From an uncultured bacterium (GTDB lineage: Bacteria > Desulfobacterota_D > UBA1144 > Nemesobacterales > UBA2774), in NCBI GenBank assembly GCA_963705505.1, contig CAVPJU010000003.1, forward strand, positions 24,021-88,020: 64,000 nt of DNA, in the 5' to 3' direction. A program made the position numbers and the translations under genes. The notes below the pieces were generated by a model, which saw only the letters and a list, made by a program, of their open reading frames with translations, was not told where the DNA came from and did no database searches. Numbering within the stretch: position 1 is the first letter of the stretch; every line of letters begins with the position of its first letter. This document shows, piece by piece, positions 9,461 to 43,454 of the stretch.

Positions 9461-12400
9461 CTATTTATCTTTTTTCTTTCCCTTGGGTTTGGATTTCTTC
9501 GCGATAAAGTTCTTGAGCTCCGTCAGGTCAGACGCGAGGAGTTCCTTTACCCTCTCGCCGTTGACTCGGGCGACGATGATGTGCCCTATCTCCGTGTTGA
9601 CCTCCTCGTATATCCCTATGGCCTTCATACCCTGGGCCTGCTTCTGGTTATCCTCAGTCGGGCTCACATAGTGTATGGATCCGGCCTTATATCTGTGGAT
9701 AAGGAACAGATGGAGCAAAGCCATGAGCCTTTTCTGCCGGAACTTCTTGTCGAAAGTGTTCTGGTCCCTGATGGACACGAAGTTGTTTCCCCAGCGGTCG
9801 TGAATCGTTGCGAAAATCACGTCCGCCACCTTGTTTCCGACCTCATCGGCTACCGAAAGCTCCAGGAGCTCCGATCCTGCCGTATGCGGCCTCAGCTTTA
9901 CGCCCAGGCGTCCCGGTATGCCGTAGTGCTCGGACCAGAGCTCGAGCCAGTCCTCGAGTATCCTCGGCGGGACCTCCGTTTCGACCAGGTGCTGGACCTG
10001 TGTCGAGCCCTTGCCCATTGCGACCGTCGTCGCCGTACGGCCCGAAGAAGCGGCGAGCGCGCCGTCGAGACGCGGCCCTCCGACCAATGTCTGGGGCGTC
10101 CTGTAAGGGGAGTCGAGCAGCCTGAACTTCCTCTGGAGCCTCGCAAGGGCTAACATTCCGTCCTGCTTCAGCGCCGTCGCGAACTCCTCCGCGGCGAGCC
10201 CGTCTATCTGGTGTCCGCCGTAGGTGATAAAGTCGAATACGTAGCCGAGCTTCCCTATCTCTTTGGGGAAGTTCCTCATCTCTTCCTCGCTCATACCCGT
10301 CGTATCCCAGTTGAAGGAAGGAGACAGGTTGTAGGCGAGCATCTTGTCCGGGAACTCCGCGTGTATTGCCTCCGCGAATTCCCTCGCCTCTTCGTAGTTT
10401 GCAGTTTTAGTTTCCATCCATATCAGGTCGGCGTAAGGAGCGACGGCGAGCGATTTAGCGATGGCGTACTCTATTCCGCCCTTCACCTGATAATAGCCCT
10501 CGGGAGTCCTCGAAAGCTCGCAGTCCCATGGGGCTTCGATCCCCATCTGTTTCGCCCTGTCCCTCGCGTGCTGGTAGGAGGCGTGCTTCGCGAATTCGAA
10601 CCACTCCTCTATAGTCATCCCGAGGCTCCTGCCCTCTTCTATGGCGAACTCCATCTGCTCGGCGACCGCCTGGTCATAGGTCATAAGACCGGACTCCACT
10701 TCCCAGGTCTCGACGAACTTGCTGGCTGCGTTCTCGAGCGGCTTCGTGATACTCCTTTCCTTCCCTTCCTTGAGCGCCTGAATGCTCTTGTCTATTATGG
10801 GCGTGAGGCCTACCTTGTCGAACCAGGCATAAGCCTCCTCGTATTCGTCGTCCGATATTTTGTAGAGCATGAAGCCGTTCACATCGGTAATGCCCTTGTC
10901 ATAGAATCTTTTCAGGATTGCGAGATAACAGTTCTTATATCCGGGGAGGTTCGTATTCGTAGCCCCGAGTATGAACGGCTGATCGCGCTCGTCGCCTCGT
11001 CCGTCGAGCAGATTGGCTGCTTCGGCGTCAGTCCTCGCGACGATGATTCCGGGGACCTTCATTATGTCGAGCTGGAACCGGGCGGCGTTTAACCTCTTTA
11101 TCTGCTCGTCTACCGGAACGAGCGCCTTTCCGCCCTGATGGCCGCATTTTTTTGTGCCGGGCTTCTGGTCCTCAATGTGATACCCGGTCACGCCCGCTTC
11201 GACGAACCTCTTGATAAGGTTCCTTACGTGGGCGTCTCCGCCGTGGCCCGTATCGGCGTCAGCTATTATGAACGGCCTGTAATCGACCTTCGGCGTGGCC
11301 TTCCTCTCCTTCTCCGACATCCTCGACCTCATGAACTTCTGGTTCCGGTCGGCCGTGAGCAGGGCGCGGACAAGCCCCGCGGCTTCATCGGGCACCTGGC
11401 TCAGCGGATAGCTTGCGAGGTCGGGTCCCGGGTCCTCGGAGAACGAGCCCTTTGCGGAAGTCGCCCAGCCGCCGAGGTATACCCCTTCGATGCCGATTCG
11501 CTTCATCGCCACGATCTGTCCCGGCGAGTAGGGGCCGAATGTCGTTATCTGCTCGCCCCTGGCGAATAGCTCTCTCAGCCTGTTGTAGAATTCCTCGGAG
11601 TATTTTCTTGCAACCGAATGGTCCGTCTCCATCGTCCCCGCCTGCTGAACGACCTGACGGGCGGAGTAAAGACGCCTGATGCCCTTGAACCTCGGCTTCG
11701 CGAACCAGTCCTTCATTTCCCTGACTTCCCTCTCGAACGAATCGAGCTCGTCTTCGAGCGATGTGTCGAGGCGCGTGTCGGGCAGGAAGTCCAGGTTCTC
11801 CGTGATCCTGGTTCCGTCTTTCTTGAACGCGTCCATATACTGCTTTATCCTGATCTTTGCCGTTGATAGGTCGTGGTTGTTAAGGTTTATATTGAGCAGG
11901 TCTATGTACCAGGGCGTCTTTATGTTGTCGAGCACGTAAGTTTCCACTATCTCCCTCGCTATGGGGAGCGTAGTGGGCTTCGAGTCATCGTGGACGTCCT
12001 TGTCCTTTGCGGCGAGCAGCTTGTCGTATTCCTCGGCGAGGAGCCTTTCAAATAGATCGGACGTAAATATATCGCCCGCCTTGACCTCGGTCTCCTTATC
12101 GTCTTCCGTTAACACCGCCCCCTTGTCCACCCATTCCCAGAGGATGCTGAGGCGTATTTCGCCCGTGGCCATATCCTCCATCAAATATAGTATGTCGTCG
12201 TTGCCGAAGAAATCGGCTGGCTTCAAAGCCGCCGCCTGAAATCCCTGTCCGAATGCGTTCCCGTACTGAAGCGCGACCGACATGAGGTTCCTGGCCCCCC
12301 TTATAGTCCTGGGCGCGGGCTCGAGGAGTGTGAGACCTTCGGCGTCCTCATCCGTGTACGTGAGCGGCGGGAATTTTCTGCCCATCTGGTTTTCCTCTCC

Positions 12401-13708
12401 CGCTTCTTCCCATACCGGCCTTATTATGTGCACCATCTTCCAGTGCGCGACCCACTTTCCGCTTGCTCCCTCCTGCTGCTCCCTCTTCGCCCCCTCGACC
12501 GCCTTCTTCATGCCCTCTTTAACGCCCTTATCGGAGCCGACCGGGATGTTGGGCTCCATGCCGCCCTGCCATAGGGCGTAGTTGTGGTTGACGCTGGGAG
12601 TGTTGACAGCCCTCCTCACCCGGTCCTCGTAATTCCTCATATATCCGTATGTCATCGTTATCGATTCTATATTCGGGTTTATGAACGACTGGTCCCATGC
12701 CATGGCGTCCGATACGCTGTTTATGTAATCCCATCTGCCTGTATTGAATCCCGCGAAATGCCTGCCGAGCGCGGCGCGTATCTCCATAAGCTGGAATGTA
12801 GCCTCCAGCTGCTCGACGAGTACATATACCTTTATCGTGCCGAGAGGCAGGGTCAGGTGGTCCTCGAGCGCCGAAAGAAGCTCGTTCCAGAACGCGGCCT
12901 CCTCAGCCGTCTGTATCTTGGGCAGGTAGAGCACGACCGAAGAGCCGGTCTTATCGAGCTCCTGATAGTTGTTTACGACATAAAGAACGGTGTCCACGAT
13001 CGAAGCCGAAAGCATAAGACCGTTCTCGTCCCTTATGTGCCTGTCGTCCAGGTGAAGCCCCCTCGCGCGGAATATCTTTGTCGTGAACTCGAGCTGCTTT
13101 CTCCAGTCGAGAATTATTTCGTGTCCGAAAAACCCTTTCGCCCATTCGTTCATCTCCCGCGAGACCTGCTCCGCGACGTTCATGAATATGGGGTCTTTCC
13201 TTATAGCGAGTTTCAGGTTCCGCTGGTTCTCAAGCGACATCGTGTTTATCTGCCCGAGAGCGTCCTCGCCGTCGAACATCCAGCCGTCCGCCCCGGAGAG
13301 GAGCGCGTATGCCACATTCCTTATACTCTTATCAATTGAAGTGTTCGGCTTCGACGCGGGGCCCGTCCCCTGTATCCACTGCCTCTGGAGATCGTGCGGG
13401 ATATCGGATCCTACGAATTTACCGTCCCGTGCGTCCTGCACCTTTATATTAGTTCTCGGTATGAAATCATTGGGGTTGAGGAACCTTATTCTTTCCCTGT
13501 TGCGGAAGCGCTGCGCCCTCCTGGAGTACCTTTTTTCCATCAGCATTTTCTGGTCTTTGTTGAATACCGAAAGCGCTTTCAGGGCCTCTAACACCTGAGG
13601 TGTATATACGTCTGAAAACTCGCTTTCGAGGTTATTCCTTATCTGAAGAGTCCTCGGACCCGAAATAACCCTGAACGGCTGTTTTGAAATATCATGAACG
13701 GTGCTCAT
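9461..13708 (-). CDS. Fused malate synthase (N-terminal about 560 aa) and isocitrate lyase (C-terminal about 850 aa, ICL2-type with an extra C-terminal domain): a bifunctional glyoxylate-shunt enzyme in one 1415-aa polypeptide
   Basis: Uninterrupted ORF. The N-terminal half carries the malate synthase A signature [12 protein letters not shown] (compare GLNCGRWDYIFS). The C-terminal half carries the isocitrate lyase signature KKCGHQGGK, the ICL N-terminal block ([14 protein letters not shown]) and a long ICL2-like C-terminal extension. RBS AAGGAGAAGGAG lies upstream of the ATG at 13708. Confidence 0.85.
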
Positions 13709-13894: not shown

Positions 13895-14240
13895 ACATGC
13901 TCAGGTCATATGTTATAGTACCCTGCCCCTTATAAAAACATTTTACCCGTTTTTATGCCCTTGTGAATTGCCCGGCGATAATTTTTCAAAACCTTTAAAT
14001 AACAAGGTGTGTCCGGTTAATTTTACTGTTGTTTTATATAAAATGATTTTATTCCGCTTTAATTAAATCCAGGAGTTATAACTATATAGGACATTTATGA
14101 GCTCGCTAAGATACGCGCAGGCCGGGGACCTCGCGCTCGCGACGGTGATAGAGCTAATCCTCGTGCCCGTCTTCTACGCGATATTCGTGCTTGACCTCAA
14201 GATTATAAAATGGGGAAATAATAGCTAGATCGTGTGTGCG

Positions 14241-14378
14241 GCATTCGACCCTTCGACAGGCTCAGGGCGAACGGGTTTAAAAGATGAGACCCTAAAACGG
14301 GTTCAAGGCGACTAATCTTAATGAATGAAAGGTTACACCCCCATCCTAACCTTCCCCCTTTCTAAGGGGAAAGGAAAG
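14241..14378. repeat. Composite intergenic repeat: family-C unit (CCCTTCGACAGGCTC...) plus family-B hairpin unit (CCATCCTAACC + CCCCCTTTCTAAGGGGAAAGG)
   Basis: The family-C core CCCTTCGACAGGCTC recurs at 26604 and the family-B unit recurs at 22088, 32521 and 36698 (last copy inverted), all read directly from the sequence. Confidence 0.45.
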
Positions 14379-14484
14379 AATAATTGTCGTAGGAGACACA
14401 CAGTAATTATGGGAACAGACTATTTGTGTGAGCGCAGATTCTGCACCATAGATTGTGTGCACCTGATTCAGAAGAAGCTTTCTA

Positions 14485-22087: not shown

Positions 22088-22114
22088 CCTGAATCCCCTT
22101 TTACGAAAGGGGAA
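22088..22114. repeat. Family-B hairpin repeat copy (CCCCTTTTACGAAAGGGG), degenerate
   Basis: Same XCCTTTACGAAAGGX hairpin unit as the copies at 14336, 32521 and 36698. Confidence 0.3.
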
Positions 22115-22199
22115 AATCCCACTCGACTTCCGCCGGCGGAAGAAACAACAGAACCCCGTGCCCGGAATTGAAGACCGCCCTCCCCTACAGCCGCACACT

Positions 22200-26603: not shown

Positions 26604-26675
26604 CCCTTCGACAGGCTCCCGACTTCGCTAAAGCTACGCCGGACAAGCAGGACGAACGGACCGGACTTCGGTTGC
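26604..26675. repeat. Family-C intergenic repeat copy (CCCTTCGACAGGCTCCCGACTTCGCTAAAGCTACGCCGGACAAGC...)
   Basis: Shares the 15-nt core CCCTTCGACAGGCTC and its 5' flank TCG(A/C)CC with the copy at 14248. Confidence 0.35.
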
Positions 26676-27651: not shown

Positions 27652-27804
27652 TGGGCGACGGAAGGTCGGTAGAAACCGTACATGAGCGCAGATTCTGCGC
27701 CCGTTCATCCCGAGGAATTAGCCTGTCCTGAGCTTGTCGCTCGTCCCGGCGAAGTCCCGGGCCGGAGCCGGGAAGGGTCGAAGGATAGATGATAGGATGT
27801 GGTG

Positions 27805-30430: not shown

Positions 30431-30535
30431 CTAATAATAATGTCATTGCGAGGGAGCGTATGTGGCGACCGCGGCAATCTCATAAAAGGCGAGATCGCCA
30501 CGTAGCTTCGCTACTCGCGATGACAGAAAAAAGAG
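30431..30535. repeat. Family-A palindromic intergenic element (GTCATTGCGAG...GGCAATCTCA...GAGATCGCCACG...CTCGCGATGAC)
   Basis: A roughly 100-nt imperfect palindrome. Arm mismatches are T/C changes compatible with G-U pairing in an RNA. A second copy lies at 36736-36800. Confidence 0.5.
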
Positions 30536-32380: not shown

Positions 32381-32520
32381 ATCAGTATCCGCACACACAA
32401 TGTTCGCTTATACATGATTTCCGCATTAATCTTCTGCCTAGCCGATAAGAGCGTCATGTGCCTGTGCCGTTCTTATTCTGTGCATTTCCGAATATCATAT
32501 AGAAAAGCATTGTTTAAAAT

Positions 32521-32550
32521 CCACCCTAACCCTCCTTTACGAAAGGAGGG
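32521..32550. repeat. Family-B hairpin repeat copy (CCACCCTAACC + CCTCCTTTACGAAAGGAGG)
   Basis: A perfect 9-bp stem with an ACG loop, preceded by the CCACCCTAACC leader shared with the copy at 14336. Confidence 0.45.
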
Positions 32551-32649
32551 AAATAAAAGACGAGAAAAATTATCTCTATTTTAGCAGAGATTTCGGTTCG
32601 GAGAATAGCTGAGGAAATAATTGAGGAAGTAGTTAGTCACGGACGGAAT

Positions 32650-38547: not shown

Positions 38548-38792
38548 AGCCTCTTCGTCCGATAATCCGCTTCTCAGCTCTATTCCAAACACCTGGCGTC
38601 CGTCCGGGACCGCATGCTTTATAGGTTAATTATACGATGGAAAAGGGAGAAAGTTTTAAAGCCTGCCGTTAGATTCGAATTACAACACAGGGAAGCTCGT
38701 AAAGGAATAGTGGAGTACCGAGAAAAAGAAAAGGGCAGCCGGACGGCTGCCCCTCTCGAATTGATGGTTTATCTAAGATGTGGAACTGCAGG

Positions 38793-39613
38793 CTAGGAAT
38801 GTGATGCCCGGCGTCTGCGGAGCGCAATCAAAGCCAGGATTCCGAACGTCCCCGCAGTAAGTATCATCCCCCATTCGGAGAGCGTCGGCACATCAACCTG
38901 AAGCAGGCCGCCGTCTATGAACACATTGTCCAGCTGACAGAACGCGGGACCCGAAAAATTCTCGGGAACAATCCAGTCGAAGCTTATCCTGACTCTTTGA
39001 CCGGCAAACCCGCTGACATCCACCGTGGCCGTTTGATTTCCCCCCGTATCGGGTAATGCAGTAGTCCCCGCTACCGCTGTAAGAATAAGGTCGGTTTGAA
39101 GCGGAGCGCCTCCGCGTGCCGGCTCTATATTTACTTCAAAAGTCCTGTTTAGAGTAGCTCCGAAATTGAGCAAGTCCCAGCCGCACTGGTATTCGAACGA
39201 CAACGTGGTCGCTCCCGGCGCTAGTCCTACATCCTGAGCTAAGCTTATTGTTCCGGGTCCGTTCCCGTCGAAACCTGTCAACGCCGCAAAAACTCCCTGC
39301 GGAGGGTCGCTTGTGAATAAACCGAAATCCGGGGATATCCCCGCTACGCCTACCTGGAGGGGGAAAAAGGGATCGGACAGATCCTGCGTGACCCAGCCAG
39401 CTAAAAGTTGCCTCTTTCGAATCCGCAATTTATGACGGGGTTCGGTAAGGCCTCGCAATTAAATCCGTCGACTGCGTAAGCGCTTTCCGCGGGCCTGAAA
39501 AATATTAAAACAGAGAAGATCGAAAGAATTAAAACCGATTTAAGAACAGCGGAGCCAAAAACCGCAATCACGCGACTCTGCAATAAGCCGCTCACTTTAA
39601 CTTTATCCATCAT
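38793..39613 (-). CDS. Secreted protein with a C-terminal IPTL-CTERM sorting signal, interrupted by a frame shift within the 39404-39458 overlap (ORFs 39401-39613 and 38793-39458)
   Basis: The upstream ORF supplies a signal peptide. The downstream ORF ends PTLSEWGMILTAGTFGILALIALRRRRAS, which matches the IPTL-CTERM motif (PTLSEWG + TM + Arg cluster). The two frames overlap across 39401-39458; a G4 run lies in that window. Confidence 0.45.
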
Positions 39614-39807
39614 CCTTCCTCCCTGGGATTATATATATTCATGCATAATTCTATTTCTTTATCCATTTTACTATAAATTCATATGCAATAGAAGGAGGAA
39701 TATTCAAGCAACATGACGGGGCGGTATTATGTTGAATTCCAGCCGCCATACTCGGCGAAGAAGGACGAAGTGAAGATCAGGCTTTTCTTTAATGTGTGAG
39801 CCGAAGC

Positions 39808-39841
39808 GCATGTGACAAGTGACAGTCGTGCAGGGTATATA
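39808..39841. repeat. 34-bp direct repeat, left copy (GCATGTGACAAGTGACAGTCGTGCAGGGTATATA)
   Basis: Identical to 40955-40988. Together they flank the AlbA_2 gene. Confidence 0.7.
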
Positions 39842-39951
39842 GTTCTGCGAAGGGAGGGTAAGTCGATATTATCTTGTTTTTCACACACAGCATCATCGAA
39901 GAATTGAATTAACTCAATAGTTTAATTATTCTATAACCGGAAATTCTACCA

Positions 39952-40767
39952 ATGAATAATTTTTTTGATAAAGCAACATACACCGAAGACGATATCAATG
40001 ATTTGATTAATAACCAGATTGAGGAGGCAATAGATTTAGAATTTAAAGAAGCTGGTGCATTAAATAATACTGACTCAAATAAAAACGAAATCTCTAAAGA
40101 TGTCGCTTCTTTTGCAAATTCGGCAGGTGGAATAATTGTATATGGTATTAGTGAAACAGAGCATAAGGCAACTTCAACATCATTGATTGACGGTAATAGA
40201 ATCACAAAAGAGTGGCTTGAACAAGTAATTCATTCAAACATAAAACAAAAGATAGACAATATAGAAATATTTCCTGTCAGATTTGATAATGATATCGCTC
40301 GGTCCGTGTATATCGTAAAGATACCGCAAAGCAATTCTAGTCCTCACATGTCTCGTGACAACAAATACTATAGAAGATATAACTTCCAATCAGTTCCAAT
40401 GGAAGAATATGAAGTCAGAAATCTTTATTACATGACTCATAGAACAGAACTTGAAATTGTAGAGGTTGCTATAGCAGGTTACGGAAGCACGGGAACTCTA
40501 AAAAGTGGTTTACACATTATAACTTTTAACCTGCAAATGAAGGTATATAATTCGGGTAAATCCATTGAGAACAATTATAAAATTAAACTCCATATACCTA
40601 ATATAATCCTTGCTGCCCGCGAACCGAAAATGACTAAATATTCACTTGAACATCAAACTGAAAAATATTCACTCATATCTTTTCCTAATTGTTCACCGCT
40701 ATTTCCCGAAGAGCCTGCGTATTCGGAAACCTCCAGTGTTGTAATTTCAAAAAAAACCTTACGATAA
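39952..40767 (+). CDS. AlbA_2/Schlafen-like putative DNA-binding domain protein (N-terminus) with an uncharacterised C-terminal domain; low-GC accessory gene
   Basis: The N-terminus matches the AlbA_2 pattern (LEFKEAGALN...ISKDVASFANSAGGIIVYGISE). The gene is markedly AT-rich with different codon usage from its neighbours and is bracketed by the 34-bp direct repeats. Confidence 0.55.
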   Translation: MNNFFDKATYTEDDINDLINNQIEEAIDLEFKEAGALNNTDSNKNEISKDVASFANSAGGIIVYGISETEHKATSTSLIDGNRITKEWLEQVIHSNIKQKIDNIEIFPVRFDNDIARSVYIVKIPQSNSSPHMSRDNKYYRRYNFQSVPMEEYEVRNLYYMTHRTELEIVEVAIAGYGSTGTLKSGLHIITFNLQMKVYNSGKSIENNYKIKLHIPNIILAAREPKMTKYSLEHQTEKYSLISFPNCSPLFPEEPAYSETSSVVISKKTLR

Positions 40768-40954
40768 TCCAGAGAATTTTAAACTGAAGTCGTTATTATA
40801 TTACTCCAATGGCATTAAAGAATATTTATATGACCTGAGAGAACTCCTAATCATAGAGGATAACCTCATCTGTAAAGAAATGTTTGTGGGTGATTGAATT
40901 ATTCTCTTTAGGTTTTACGATCTGTTTCGTATGTGACTTGCCCCGTAATCCCCC

Positions 40955-40988
40955 GCATGTGACAAGTGACAGTCGTGCAGGGTATATA
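40955..40988. repeat. 34-bp direct repeat, right copy (identical to 39808-39841), followed by a partial inverted copy (CTGTCACTTTGTCACTTGG)
   Basis: Exact match, then an imperfect inverted repeat of the TGTGACAAGTGACAG core at 40999-41017. Confidence 0.7.
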
Positions 40989-41158
40989 CCCCGGACATCT
41001 GTCACTTTGTCACTTGGTGCCATCCCTATACCCTGCATCGGCGGCGGATTGCGCAAACTCTACTTTCTTTTCCCTTCCTTTTGTAATCATTGTTAGATAT
41101 TATTTAGACGTATTTCAATATACCTCGCGCGTCTCTGTAGGGGTGACGGAGGCAGTGA

Positions 41159-41398
41159 GTGAGGGTAATAATCTGCGGGTCTCCGCAGTGGACTTATGAC
41201 GAAATAGTAAAGGACGAGGTGGTCCGTCTGCGCCGGGAGTCGAGATTGTCCGGCAGGAAGCTCCTTATCATTCACGGCGCGACCGTCCCGAAACCGTTGC
41301 GCATGAGTATTGCAGAAACTCGGCATCGATACCATGGTACAGAATGCCGTCTGGGTAATGGGGCAGAACTGCTATTTCGCGGAGAACCGAGATCATGA
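41159..41398 (+). pseudogene. Possible remnant of a DUF2493/SLOG-family gene (MRVIICGS...IIHG...)
   Basis: 79-aa ORF whose N-terminus resembles DUF2493 (MRV..CGSR.WTD....HGG), but it is truncated and divergent. Confidence 0.2.
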
Positions 41399-41741
41399 GG
41401 AAGCTTTAATCCACAAATGGCCCTTGTGGGGAACACTACCATGCTTACCTTGAACAATTAGATTCTGCACGCGGCTTGCTCTTGGCCGCCCGATGATCGA
41501 TTACAAGAGCATGACTTGAGAGATGTTTATGAAGGTAGGATACTGGTCCAGAGGCTAGTTCAGTTTTAAAAGTCATAAATCTGGCGGAGTTCAAATTACG
41601 CAAAATCATAAGAGATGTACCAGAGAAGGAAAAAGAAGTTCAAGATGCTTTTGAGAATCTTCTCATAGGTGCAGATATACCTTATTCTAAGGAGGCGGAA
41701 AGCATTGAATACTCTACTAAAAATTCCTCAACTATCACAAA

Positions 41742-41900
41742 CCCGACCTGGTCATCTGCTTCGCCCTGTCGTTCAAGGAGAGCGCTGTCGCCGCCGATAT
41801 GATAAAGAGAGCGGAGGTGAAGGGGATCAAGACCAAGGCGATAGACTACGTGAGCATCGTGAAACGCAACAGCGACGATATCCCGATAAGGCCGGTGTGA
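41742..41900 (+). pseudogene. 3' remnant (52 codons, GC-rich) of a host gene whose 5' part has been replaced by AT-rich foreign DNA
   Basis: The in-frame peptide PDLVICFALSFKESAVAADMIKRAEVKGIKTKAIDYVSIVKRNSDDIPIRPV* has no start codon and a sharp GC shift at about 41742. Upstream AT-rich frames encode unrelated peptide fragments. Confidence 0.3.
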
Positions 41901-42047: not shown

Positions 42048-43454
42048 ATGGCCAGTAAAAATACGAGAACAGAATACGATTCGATGGGGGAGATGGAAGT
42101 CCCCTCAAGCGCATATTACGGCGCCCAGACGGCGAGGGCGATAGAGAATTTCCCCATCAGCGGCATACGCAAGCACGCCCTGCTCGTGAAGGCGATGGGG
42201 ATGATAAAGCTCGCCGGCGCGGAGGCCAACATGGAGCTCGGTCTCCTGAGCAAGAAGACAGGCAGCGCGATAGTGAGGGCGGCAAAGGAGGTCATCGACG
42301 GGAAGCTCGACGACCACTTCATCCTCGACGTTTTCCAGACGGGGTCCGGCACGTCCACCAACATGAACACGAACGAAGTGATAGCCAACCGCGCGAACGA
42401 AATAATCGGGGGCAGGAAAGGAGACAAGTCGGGTATCCATCCGAACGACCACGTTAACATGGGACAGTCGAGTAACGACGTTTACCCGACGGCGATACAC
42501 GTCTCGGCGATCCTCGCGATAAACGAGATACTCATGCCCGCGCTCAAGAACCTCGAGAAGGCGCTTTCAGCAAAGGCGCGCGAGTTCAACAAGATAGTCA
42601 AGATCGGACGCACGCACCTCCAGGACGCTACCCCCATCAGGCTCGGCCAGGAGTTCAGCGGCTACGCGAGCATGATAACGCACGGCATCAGGAGAGTGGA
42701 GCACGCGAGGGAAGAGCTGTCAGAGCTCGCGATAGGCGGCACCGCTGTCGGCACCGGGATCAACACGCATCCGAAATTCGCCGGGCTCGTCGTGAAGAGG
42801 CTCAGCAAAATGACGGGGACGAAGCTGAGGGAGGCGGAGAACCATTTCGAGGCCCAGGGATCCAAGGACGCCGTAGTCGAGGCGAGCGGGTCTCTCAAGA
42901 CCCTCGCCGTGAGCCTCATGAAGATAGCGAACGATATAAGGTGGCTCGGGAGCGGCCCGCGCTGCGGGATAGGGGAGATAATGATTCCTGCCGTCCAGCC
43001 GGGCTCGTCGATCATGCCGGGGAAGGTGAACCCCGTCATACCCGAAGCCGTGTGCCAGGTGGCGGCGCAGGTCATAGGGAACGACCTCACGATTACCATA
43101 GGCGGACAGTTCGGGAACTTCGAGCTAAACGTCATGATGCCGGTGAAGGGGCACAACCTTCTCCAGTCCATAGAGCTCCTGGGCAAGGTCTCTCAGGTAT
43201 TCACCGACAAGTGCGTGAAGGGTATAAAGGCCGACAGGAAGCGCTGCGAGGAGATGATAGAGAAGAGCCTCGCCATGTGCACGAGCCTGGCGCCCGTCAT
43301 CGGATACGATAGCGCCGCCAAGATAGCGAAGGAGGCCTACGAGACGGGCAAGACCGTGAGGCAGGTCGCTCTCGAGAAGAAGGTGCTCCCGGCTGAGAAG
43401 CTGAAGCAGCTCCTCGACCCCTGGTCTATGACGGAGCCCGGGACAAAGAAGTAG
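42048..43454 (+). CDS. aspA: Aspartate ammonia-lyase (aspartase)
   Basis: RBS AAGGAGGAG. Contains the fumarase/aspartase signature GSSIMPGKVNP. The N-terminal and internal blocks (AYYGAQTARAIENFPISG, NMNTNEVIANRANEI, GRTHLQDATPIRLGQEF) match E. coli AspA more closely than FumC. Confidence 0.75.
   Translation: MASKNTRTEYDSMGEMEVPSSAYYGAQTARAIENFPISGIRKHALLVKAMGMIKLAGAEANMELGLLSKKTGSAIVRAAKEVIDGKLDDHFILDVFQTGSGTSTNMNTNEVIANRANEIIGGRKGDKSGIHPNDHVNMGQSSNDVYPTAIHVSAILAINEILMPALKNLEKALSAKAREFNKIVKIGRTHLQDATPIRLGQEFSGYASMITHGIRRVEHAREELSELAIGGTAVGTGINTHPKFAGLVVKRLSKMTGTKLREAENHFEAQGSKDAVVEASGSLKTLAVSLMKIANDIRWLGSGPRCGIGEIMIPAVQPGSSIMPGKVNPVIPEAVCQVAAQVIGNDLTITIGGQFGNFELNVMMPVKGHNLLQSIELLGKVSQVFTDKCVKGIKADRKRCEEMIEKSLAMCTSLAPVIGYDSAAKIAKEAYETGKTVRQVALEKKVLPAEKLKQLLDPWSMTEPGTKK

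Follow-up and report, generated by a model that had tools for sequence, protein, structure and literature searches.

A Schlafen gene between hairpin-forming repeats at a strain-variable site of an uncultured bacterium: a probable single-gene cassette in decay

Introduction

The demonstration that prokaryotic Schlafen proteins are phage-defence tRNases dates only from 2026 (PMC13056530). In pSlfn5 (RorSlfn5), a tail assembly chaperone of T5 type is sensed by an immunoglobulin (Ig)-like domain, and tRNA is cleaved by the nuclease domain (Perez Taboada et al., Nat Microbiol 2026, PMC13056530). The catalytic motif of these nucleases is given as Ex4(E/D)xK (PMC13056530). How such single-gene defence effectors spread is largely unknown in the field. 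Here we describe a locus in a 64-kb stretch of contig CAVPJU010000003.1 (the window; positions are counted from its first nucleotide), from an uncultured bacterium of Dadabacteria-like lineage, that joins a pSlfn5-type gene on a 1.15-kb unit, borders conserved in structure, occurrence in several contexts and a natural site that has the hairpin only, all within an uncultivated phylum and with no integrase in sight.

Small units without an integrase of their own are known from Xer-dependent modules (pdif modules and integrative mobile elements exploiting Xer, IMEXs), which have short recombination sites with an A/T-rich centre and are mobilised by a host enzyme. In integrons, the ORF of a cassette is followed by the attC site, an imperfect palindrome of 57-141 nt with R'' (RYYYAAC) and R' (GTTRRRY) cores. 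An original prediction, made from the letters of the window, had described the locus as a small mobile element, carrying a solo defence-type gene, in a patch of gene debris.

Results and discussion

A gene bounded by hairpin-forming repeats

The core of the locus, 39807-41018, is probably a non-autonomous cassette with a single Schlafen gene, bounded by hairpins and moved by recombination at the hairpin, and here in decay. Its borders are directly oriented copies of a hairpin-forming palindrome of ~60 nt. The original prediction had noticed two identical 34-nt direct repeats (39808-39841 and 40955-40988); they are exact and real, but 35 nt long (39807-39841 and 40954-40988), with no match expected by chance; even when three mismatches are allowed, the window has no further copy. 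The 35-nt repeat is the left arm and centre of the palindrome, and the partial inverted copy reported with it supplies the right arm: at 40954-41018 the two make up an imperfect palindrome in which two GTGACA boxes, an inner stem and a TATATAC centre are followed by their mirror image. The repeats do not bracket the gene exactly, as had been claimed: the left copy ends 110 nt ahead of the ATG and the right copy starts 57 nt past the reconstructed stop.

As single-stranded DNA (ssDNA), the downstream hairpin folds at -17.5 kcal/mol (z = -4.4). The upstream copy, which is without a right arm, gives no fold (z = +0.4); it keeps both GTGACA boxes and is preceded by CGAAGCG, as is the solo hairpin of a related contig (L076, below). 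In the leader that follows it there are possible right-arm remnants of CCGACA type (CTGCG...) and two TTAGTTTATATTATCTT-like motifs, and the 3' spacer between gene and downstream hairpin has the pattern ATTATT..GGTTTTAC..TAAT..CCCC. Adjoining the full hairpin is a tentative, degenerate second one (GCCATCC..CTATACCC..TGC..TCGG..GGCGGAT) with internal deletions, which lies below the nhmmer threshold, was called by eye and is absent from the related contig L088.

Copies recovered from other loci share this general layout, in which a pair of NNGACA boxes leads into an inner stem and a TATA(TA)C centre, all of it then mirrored. All 10 full copies folded form stable ssDNA hairpins (60-68 nt; z = -4 to -7), the L076 solo copy more weakly (-8 kcal/mol). 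When 11 copies are aligned, paired cells make up 88% and five pairs are changed on both sides (18 cells), with compensatory changes in the boxes (GT/AC, CC/GG, GC/GC and GG/CC). This level of covariation is reached by 0 of 500 shuffles, and slid registers drop to 20-45% paired. The box cores, GACA and TGTC, are invariant in all 11 copies. Both hairpins score higher on the gene's strand in all loci and are thus directly oriented, and the energies of top- and bottom-strand hairpins are similar, with no consistent G-T bias.

The hairpin is rare. A profile finds no copy in the window beyond the two that flank the gene and, over 105 loci (~580 kb), matches solely cassettes and solo sites; a strict pattern has one match in 185,579 species genomes, the solo copy in L006, and viral contigs scanned for both hairpin types gave none. 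The repeat is thus not a common repetitive extragenic palindromic (REP) element in the ~640 kb of window and fetched loci. At E <= 1 there is no Rfam match at the hairpins, to a structured-RNA or an attC-like family, and no terminator or T-tract was called there; promoter-like sites do not exceed shuffled expectation. A role of the hairpin as sigma-70 promoter carrier or intrinsic terminator found no support in these calls or in a reading of the sequence.

The same unit in other chromosomal contexts

The four proteins closest to the window protein (70-75% amino acid identity) were traced to their contigs. In every traced context (at least four besides the window) a ~60-nt palindrome stands on each side of the gene, the two being in direct orientation; they share the architecture seen here but differ in sequence, with CCGACA, GCGACA or GGGACA boxes as against GTGACA; a leader of ~20 nt and a 3' spacer of ~55 nt are conserved among the cassettes, the window leader being longer through extra sequence. 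On L001-L004 (protein P0002) the unit lies between pntB and a helicase gene (DnaB-N/AAA_25) of the type found on mobile genetic elements; on L005 (P0005) it lies between an IPTL-CTERM gene not orthologous to that of the window and the same helicase gene; on L073 (P0003) it has a rhodanese-like gene on its left and an unrelated gene on its right. On L074/L075 (P0004) the hairpin ahead of the bracketed gene and the one behind it belong to different sequence types. L001, L073 and L005 have in common the small differences by which an upstream hairpin can be told from a downstream one (TATACCC versus TATACTC, and variants of the inner stem), so that both hairpins have moved together with the gene into different contexts.

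The GC content of the gene is 33% in all four loci measured, versus 51-64% in neighbouring genes, and the flanks in the window are at 57%. This difference from the flanks, together with a family named mostly from Bacteroidota and Ignavibacteria, identifies the gene as foreign and bears out the proposal that the patch was horizontally acquired.

Flanking repeats as a feature of the whole family can be ruled out: among 33 distant relatives from a metagenome scan, 30 of them with usable flanks, repeats of any kind were seen in just two, L014 (direct, 21 nt) and L064 (REP, inverted). The L014 member (44% identity; L014 1-1098) has an exact 21-nt direct repeat, TTCGCAACTGACGAGAAGCGG, inside which the contig ends, and an inner 9-nt inverted repeat, GTTAGTGGC / GCCACTAAC; to judge from its sequence, this may be another, unrelated cassette-like arrangement.

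The helicase that the cassette abuts (L001 1590-2969; L005 2039-3418) is a 459-aa protein of mobile-element type with a DnaB N-terminal domain, an AAA_25/RecA-like ATPase and a C-terminal winged helix-turn-helix, and is below all cellular DnaB cut-offs. The candidate remnant of a DnaB-like helicase in the window was rejected.

Related sites without the cassette

The region between an extracytoplasmic function (ECF)-sigma operon and fumC, in which the cassette lies, is a strain-variable hotspot. The gene on its right had been named aspA; its nearest homologs, 98% identical, are named class II fumarate hydratase. Through this neighbour (98% identical protein P0129) we recovered L076, which shares 91-94% identity with the window in its flanks (38747-39799 of the window pairs with L076 1-1051, and the window from 41936 with L076 from 1543). 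The interval enclosed by these flanks in L076 holds REP-like repeats and a single solo hairpin of GTGACA type, but no Schlafen gene. The downstream hairpin of the window is 94.5% identical to this solo copy (over 40964-41018) and 92% identical to that of L006. The window differs from L076 by a 1147-bp unit, situated between the duplicated left arm plus centre and the complete hairpin, which contains only the Schlafen gene and no element-encoded integrase. The comparison with an empty site in a syntenic genome that the original prediction had called for thus gives one hairpin and no gene.

Four allelic states of this one intergenic region were recovered. Upstream of fumC, L105 has a permease gene and REPs; L088 has the permease, REPs and an intact YAcAr gene; L076 has an IPTL-CTERM gene, a permease tail, REPs, the solo hairpin and further REPs; and the window has an IPTL-CTERM gene, the permease tail, the hairpin left arm, the Schlafen gene, the full hairpin, the degenerate hairpin and a broken YAcAr gene. 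Neither hairpin nor cassette is present at this site in L088 and L105, and more distant relatives (L077-L081) have the permease there. Elsewhere in the window, 13984-14484 is the unoccupied counterpart of the pntB-flanking site of L001, with no cassette and no helicase, and L006 (Candidatus Dadabacteria bacterium RIFCSPHIGHO2_12_FULL_53_21) has a solo full hairpin with no Schlafen gene beside it.

A prokaryotic Schlafen of pSlfn5 architecture

The 816-nt ORF of the original prediction (39952-40767; 271 aa, 33% GC) is real, but it is a frameshifted form of a gene whose family has ~313 aa. The AlbA_2/Schlafen-like N-terminus proposed for it was confirmed by a hidden Markov model search, with a match to PF04326 (SLFN_AlbA_2) over residues 27-150 (E = 1.2e-17; 64.9 bits versus a cut-off of 25.3). 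An A8 run at 40749-40756 carries one extra A, and the ORF therefore stops at 40767; with one A removed, a 314-aa protein results that aligns over 100% with homologs of 312-314 aa. The frameshift costs the last ~45 residues of the Ig-like domain, which are encoded in the next frame, and the DNA identity to L001 and L005 (78%) continues through it to 40925. The reconstructed protein has 1,492 matches, mostly of ~313 aa; those with a named host are mostly from Bacteroidota or Ignavibacteria and are labelled 'AlbA family DNA-binding' or 'ATP-binding' protein.

In the window protein the catalytic motif Ex4ExK reads E25-AIDL-E30-F-K32, and E24, E25 and K32, with other residues, are invariant in 61 homologs, a profile of which matches the SLFN13, SLFN5, SLFN12 and SLFN14 chains. 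An AlphaFold2 model was built for P0002, which is 75% identical to the window protein (pLDDT 93.4). Its N-terminal half is matched by Foldseek with probability 1.00 to 5yd0 (SLFN13), 7zel (SLFN11), 9uie and 9nyy (SLFN14) and 3lmm (DIP2311). Residues ~165-312 are all-beta, an Ig-like sandwich, and this half matches integrin alphaV/alphaIIb and GH3/GH20 Fn3-like domains, in line with the integrin-like fold reported for the sensor domain of RorSlfn5 (PMC13056530). By profile match, motif and modelled fold, the window protein is a prokaryotic Schlafen with the pSlfn5 architecture of nuclease plus Ig-like beta-sandwich. By analogy, the family would act as a phage-triggered tRNase: with the Ig-like domain as sensor of a phage protein, the Ex4ExK nuclease would be set free to cut tRNA, and the infection would be aborted or weakened.

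The window gene itself appears to be either a frameshifted pseudogene or an assembly error, and this copy is presumably non-functional. Relatives have A5-A6 where the window has A8, and the tract could instead be a slipped-strand on/off switch of a toxic effector rather than a sign of simple decay.

PADLOC (2023), which includes no pSlfn5-type model, gave no match for the Schlafen protein. NCBIfam and PHROGs gave nothing useful beyond a weak match to a helicase-family PHROG, and a profile scan of viral contigs returned mostly relatives of the N-terminal domain and no close cassette.

Proposed movement of the cassette and its alternatives

Since the unit occurs at different chromosomal places, and L076 has a solo hairpin at exactly the same site, we infer that recombination at the hairpin is how the cassette is gained or lost. 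Catalysis would probably be in trans, as no recombinase is seen in the 64 kb: there is no Phage_integrase match among the 20 large ORFs of the window, small ORFs being outside the scope of this search, and the remaining neighbours are housekeeping genes syntenic with relatives. The copy in the window appears to be decaying, through the +1A frameshift, loss of the right arm of the upstream hairpin and breakage of the YAcAr and IPTL-CTERM neighbours. The repeats had been proposed as footprints of a mobile element. They do bound a small integrase-less unit with a solo defence-type gene, but are not simple att sites or terminal inverted repeats (TIRs), as they are halves of a 60-nt hairpin that also occurs solo.

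Several points weigh against movement of a dedicated cassette. The 64 kb yielded neither a recombinase nor a transposase, which leaves the mechanism of mobilisation conjectural. There are only five cassette contexts, mostly on short metagenomic contigs. Distant relatives (32-60% identity, 66 loci) are without flanking repeats save L014 and L064, so that the association with hairpins is lineage-specific. The direction of change is open to two readings, insertion into a resident hairpin or deletion that left a scar in L076, and the loss in L076 could be explained by plain homologous recombination between 60-nt repeats. The three frameshifts within 2.5 kb could in part be consensus errors of the metagenome-assembled genome (MAG) in a strain-variable region. 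Hairpin stability does not differ between the strands, which fits a folded ssDNA or RNA as well as a symmetric double-stranded site for protein binding. No other defence genes lie nearby and PADLOC gave no match, and the defence role is thus argued from architecture.

A bolder version, which we regard as possible though rather doubtful, takes the (NNGACA)x2-TATAC-(TGTCNN)x2 hairpins for the sites of an undescribed, integron-independent cassette system. A recombinase of the host or of a mobile element would recognise the hairpin in its folded or symmetric form and carry AT-rich defence genes one at a time, in this case a Schlafen tRNase gene, from one chromosomal site to another and across genomes of GC-rich Dadabacteria/Desulfobacterota. 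Solo hairpins would be left as landing pads or scars, and the A8 tract could in addition serve as an on/off phase switch of the toxic effector.

Alternatively, the hairpins might be ordinary repeats, REP-like or resembling miniature inverted-repeat transposable elements (MITEs), of REP-rich genomes, the gene being moved or deleted by generic homologous or illegitimate recombination with no dedicated system. Solo hairpins do occur without the gene (L006, L076), the intergenic regions are mosaics of several repeat families, and no recombinase was found among the large ORFs. In five of seven cases, moreover, the hairpin lies ~20 nt downstream of a common repeat, CCCTCTCCC..GGGTGAGGGGGTACCTTAAT, which is also present without hairpins at 14336-14376 of the window and in L088. 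We nevertheless consider this explanation unlikely. A repeat of this kind would not be expected to be so rare (no further copy in the 64 kb and in ~580 kb of loci, ~100 kb of syntenic relatives included), or to stand on both sides of one gene in five contexts with its upstream and downstream variants kept, the pair moving with the gene, and with its structure maintained by compensatory changes.

Cassette movement of integron type would make the hairpins attC sites and place IntI elsewhere, as in clusters of attC lacking integrase (CALINs). It agrees with the lone ORF, behind which lies an imperfect palindrome of 57-70 nt whose arms have two boxes each, with a GC content unlike that of the host and with the different sequence types of the L074/L075 hairpins, as in cassette arrays, and integron cassettes have been reported to carry phage-defence functions (PMC12614218). 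We still hold it to be highly improbable for these sites. Their invariant box core is GAC...GTC and not the AAC...GTT of R''/R', with no AAC/GTT at the hairpin feet, and the boxes of one arm, 1-3 nt apart, repeat each other directly, where R and L would form an inverted pair around an unpaired spacer. An array of cassettes is lacking, the upstream hairpin moves along with the gene, IntI is not found among the large ORFs, and no attC-like or structured-RNA family was matched at the threshold given above.

A passenger-carrying element related to IS200/IS605 or to REP doublets forming hairpins (REPINs), moved as ssDNA by a Y1 HUH transposase (TnpA/RAYT) acting in trans on subterminal hairpins, would account for the directly oriented, similar yet non-identical hairpins at both ends, for the lack of terminal inverted repeats and target duplications outside them and for the covariation, and solo hairpins could be its minimal derivatives. 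It is nonetheless very doubtful: the hairpins are ~3x longer than the IS608 type and have no top/bottom strand asymmetry in stability or G-T pairs, no conserved cleavage tetranucleotide was found, the large ORFs of the 64 kb include neither TnpA nor RAYT, and the window unit gives the appearance of an insertion into the centre of the hairpin rather than next to a target motif.

A cis-regulatory or insulating role of the hairpins (as a repressor operator or bidirectional terminators), which would be kept to control the expression of a toxic nuclease gene, agrees with their positions (the upstream one 20 nt before the ATG in L001, L005, L073 and L074; the downstream one 55 nt past the stop, and abutting the stop of the convergent helicase gene in L001 and L005) but is scarcely credible as the whole explanation, given the lack of a T-tract, of a terminator call and of promoter-like sites above shuffled expectation, the solo hairpins away from any Schlafen gene and an empty-versus-occupied polymorphism that maps to the hairpin. 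Roles of the hairpins in regulation and in mobility are mutually compatible.

Layout of the locus and its broken neighbours

The features of the locus are collected in Table 1. As the original prediction had it, base composition collapses here, from a GC content of 0.55-0.62 to 0.27-0.40 over ~39500-40900, and remains mixed as far as 42000. No tRNA is present at the locus as an integration target.

Table 1. Features of the hotspot, in window coordinates
Feature	Coordinates	Strand	Evidence
IPTL-CTERM surface-protein gene, left hotspot border	38793..39613	-	Pfam IPTL-CTERM match; two ORFs
Xanthine/uracil permease tail, last 17 codons and stop	39751..39800	+	98% identity to L088 445-494
Upstream hairpin copy, left arm and TATATA centre only	39807..39841	+	Exact 35-nt repeat
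Cassette leader	39842..39951	+	Aligned with upstream regions of L001, L005, L073, L074
Predicted Schlafen (AlbA_2) nuclease gene with C-terminal Ig-like domain, pSlfn5-type	39952..40897	+	PF04326; frame reconstructed
3' spacer of cassette	40898..40953	+	Aligned in all 5 cassettes
Downstream full hairpin, GTGACA type	40954..41018	+	Folding, relatives, covariation
Degenerate second hairpin, CCGACA type (tentative)	41019..41051	+	By-eye comparison with L001 upstream hairpin
YAcAr/DUF2493 (SLOG) resident gene, 5' part, internal frameshifts	41159..41397	+	P0249 mapping; intact L088 ortholog
329-bp AT-rich insertion in YAcAr gene: DpnII/MboI-like (PF18742) 5' fragment	41398..41726	+	L088 contiguity; P0252
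YAcAr gene, 3' part	41727..41900	+	P0249 aa 81-138, 95% identity
fumC (class II fumarate hydratase), right hotspot border	42048..43454	+	Homologs; Pfam Lyase_1 and FumaraseC_C

Downstream of the cassette, the original prediction had listed separate pieces of debris, which are better described as one resident YAcAr gene interrupted by a foreign fragment. A homology search with the composite of AT-rich fragments and GC-rich tail returned two unrelated families. The 79-aa ORF (41159-41398) has, as suggested, a weak Pfam match to DUF2493 (E = 0.005), a SLOG family, and is 87-95% identical to the intact 138-aa YAcAr protein P0249. This protein maps to the window in three frames (aa 1-45 at 41159-41296, aa 54-78 at 41313-41387, and aa 81-138 in the tail), and what had been taken for the last 52 codons of a host gene without a 5' part is the 3' part of the same gene. 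The ORF and the tail are two halves of one gene broken in place. L088 has an intact copy at the same position (94-97% identical; 97.5% nucleotide identity over L088 1009-1329), and the YAcAr gene is therefore resident and was not imported with the cassette. Homology to L088 starts at 41052, and L088 is contiguous over the insertion point (L088 1008/1009 corresponds to window 41397/41727).

The AT-rich stretches seen as fragments of a foreign gene are indeed that: 41431-41724 corresponds, stop-riddled and with 57% identity, to residues 7-104 of P0252, a DpnII/MboI-like protein that matches PF18742. The insertion of this restriction endonuclease-fold fragment is clean, without flanking repeats.

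A two-gene system of Schlafen and YAcAr was considered and rejected: none of 66 pSlfn5-like loci has YAcAr, and in L088 YAcAr stands alone. A different Schlafen gene (265 aa, with an N-terminal transmembrane segment and AlbA_2) lies directly upstream of a YAcAr ortholog, in otherwise unrelated surroundings, in L083 (1300-2869) and L085 (1917-3486), an adjacency that may be coincidence or may mean that YAcAr marks an insertion hotspot.

On the left, the permease tail is also present in L105 and L076, and the matching stretch of L088 ends an ORF that shares 63% identity with the C-terminal end of an L077 protein, Xan_ur_permease (569 aa); to judge from these matches, the tail is what is left of the real decapitated host gene. 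The permease is intact at this position in L088, L105 and L077-L081, and the IPTL-CTERM gene replaces it in the window and L076. A 2-nt insertion at 39409-39410 splits the IPTL-CTERM gene into ORFs of 70 and 221 aa; the L076 ortholog is intact (271 aa), and tblastn finds it in two frames of the window. This third broken gene in 2.5 kb could be real decay or a consensus error of the MAG.

REP-like repeats, exemplified by CCCTCTCCC..GGGAGAGGG followed by GGGTGAGGGGGTACCTTAAT and by CCTTCGACAGGCTCAGGACGAACGG, occur in the window at 14250-14376, 22088-22116, 26605-26659, 27720-27754, 30442-30498 and 32516-32556, and the same families are found in L001, L006, L073-L076, L088 and L105. The GGGTG..CCTTAAT element is the repeat that lies ~20 nt upstream of the hairpin in five of seven cases.

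Two further observations concern other parts of the window. Between the sigma-factor gene and the IPTL-CTERM gene there is a sub-threshold Rfam match to ctRNA_p42d (38722-38756, minus strand; 29.6 bits versus a gathering score of 50, E = 0.003), which is probably a chance hairpin. An ORF of 1415 aa (9461-13708, minus strand) has N-terminal malate synthase domains and a C-terminal isocitrate lyase domain and appears to encode a fused glyoxylate-shunt enzyme.

Comparison with known systems

If the hairpins are true recombination sites, the unit would be a compact new vehicle for defence genes, an analogue of the integron cassette with different sites, and would help in the search for the recombinase. 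Should they prove to be no more than REP-like repeats, the locus would remain a clear case of repeat-rich intergenic hotspots that gain, break and lose accessory genes. In occupied and empty natural alleles there is a concrete lead to a possibly undescribed mechanism of mobilisation. A literature search for hairpin-flanked defence cassettes returned nothing specific.

The passenger resembles pSlfn5 (RorSlfn5) in its PF04326 N-terminal domain with Ex4(E/D)xK, its C-terminal Ig-like sandwich of integrin type and its organisation as a single-gene system. The likeness is one of architecture and fold: the window family has ~313 aa, whereas RorSlfn5 is a protein of 43.1 kDa, and here the host is an uncultivated Dadabacteria-like lineage, no defence genes are neighbours, the copy is frameshifted and the gene sits on a hairpin-bounded cassette, which is not described in PMC13056530.

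For the vehicle there are several partial likenesses. An element between attL and attR would share the flanking direct repeats and the single-copy empty site of L076, but would have an integrase. With IS200/IS605 and the palindrome-associated transposable elements (PATEs), and with REP/REPIN-RAYT, the unit has in common directly oriented subterminal hairpins, the lack of TIRs and target-site duplications, non-autonomous copies and solo hairpins; its hairpins are, however, much longer and nearly symmetric, of low copy number and with a defence-type passenger, no Y1 transposase was seen, and the many dispersed intergenic copies per genome that are typical of REP families were not seen in the DNA examined. 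Xer-dependent modules are likewise small and integrase-less, and the TATA(TA)C centre of the site is reminiscent of theirs, whereas the sites here are 60 nt long, directly oriented and strongly divergent between loci, with tandem outer boxes.

Integron cassettes and their attC sites, CALINs included, are the closest resemblance, yet the features that define the site fail. Shared are a single ORF of foreign composition, an imperfect palindrome of ~60 nt conserved in structure and not in sequence (the hairpins, at 60-68 nt, fall within the range for attC), mobilisation in trans, which here would be presumed, and the capacity to carry defence genes. In place of the R'' and R' cores, all 11 copies have GACA/TGTC; the boxes are direct repeats, both hairpins are mobile with the gene, and neither IntI, attI nor an array was seen. 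The Schlafen gene is therefore best placed as a further member of an already described family, and the cassette may provisionally be regarded as a variant of hairpin-associated cassette mobility, possibly a new one.

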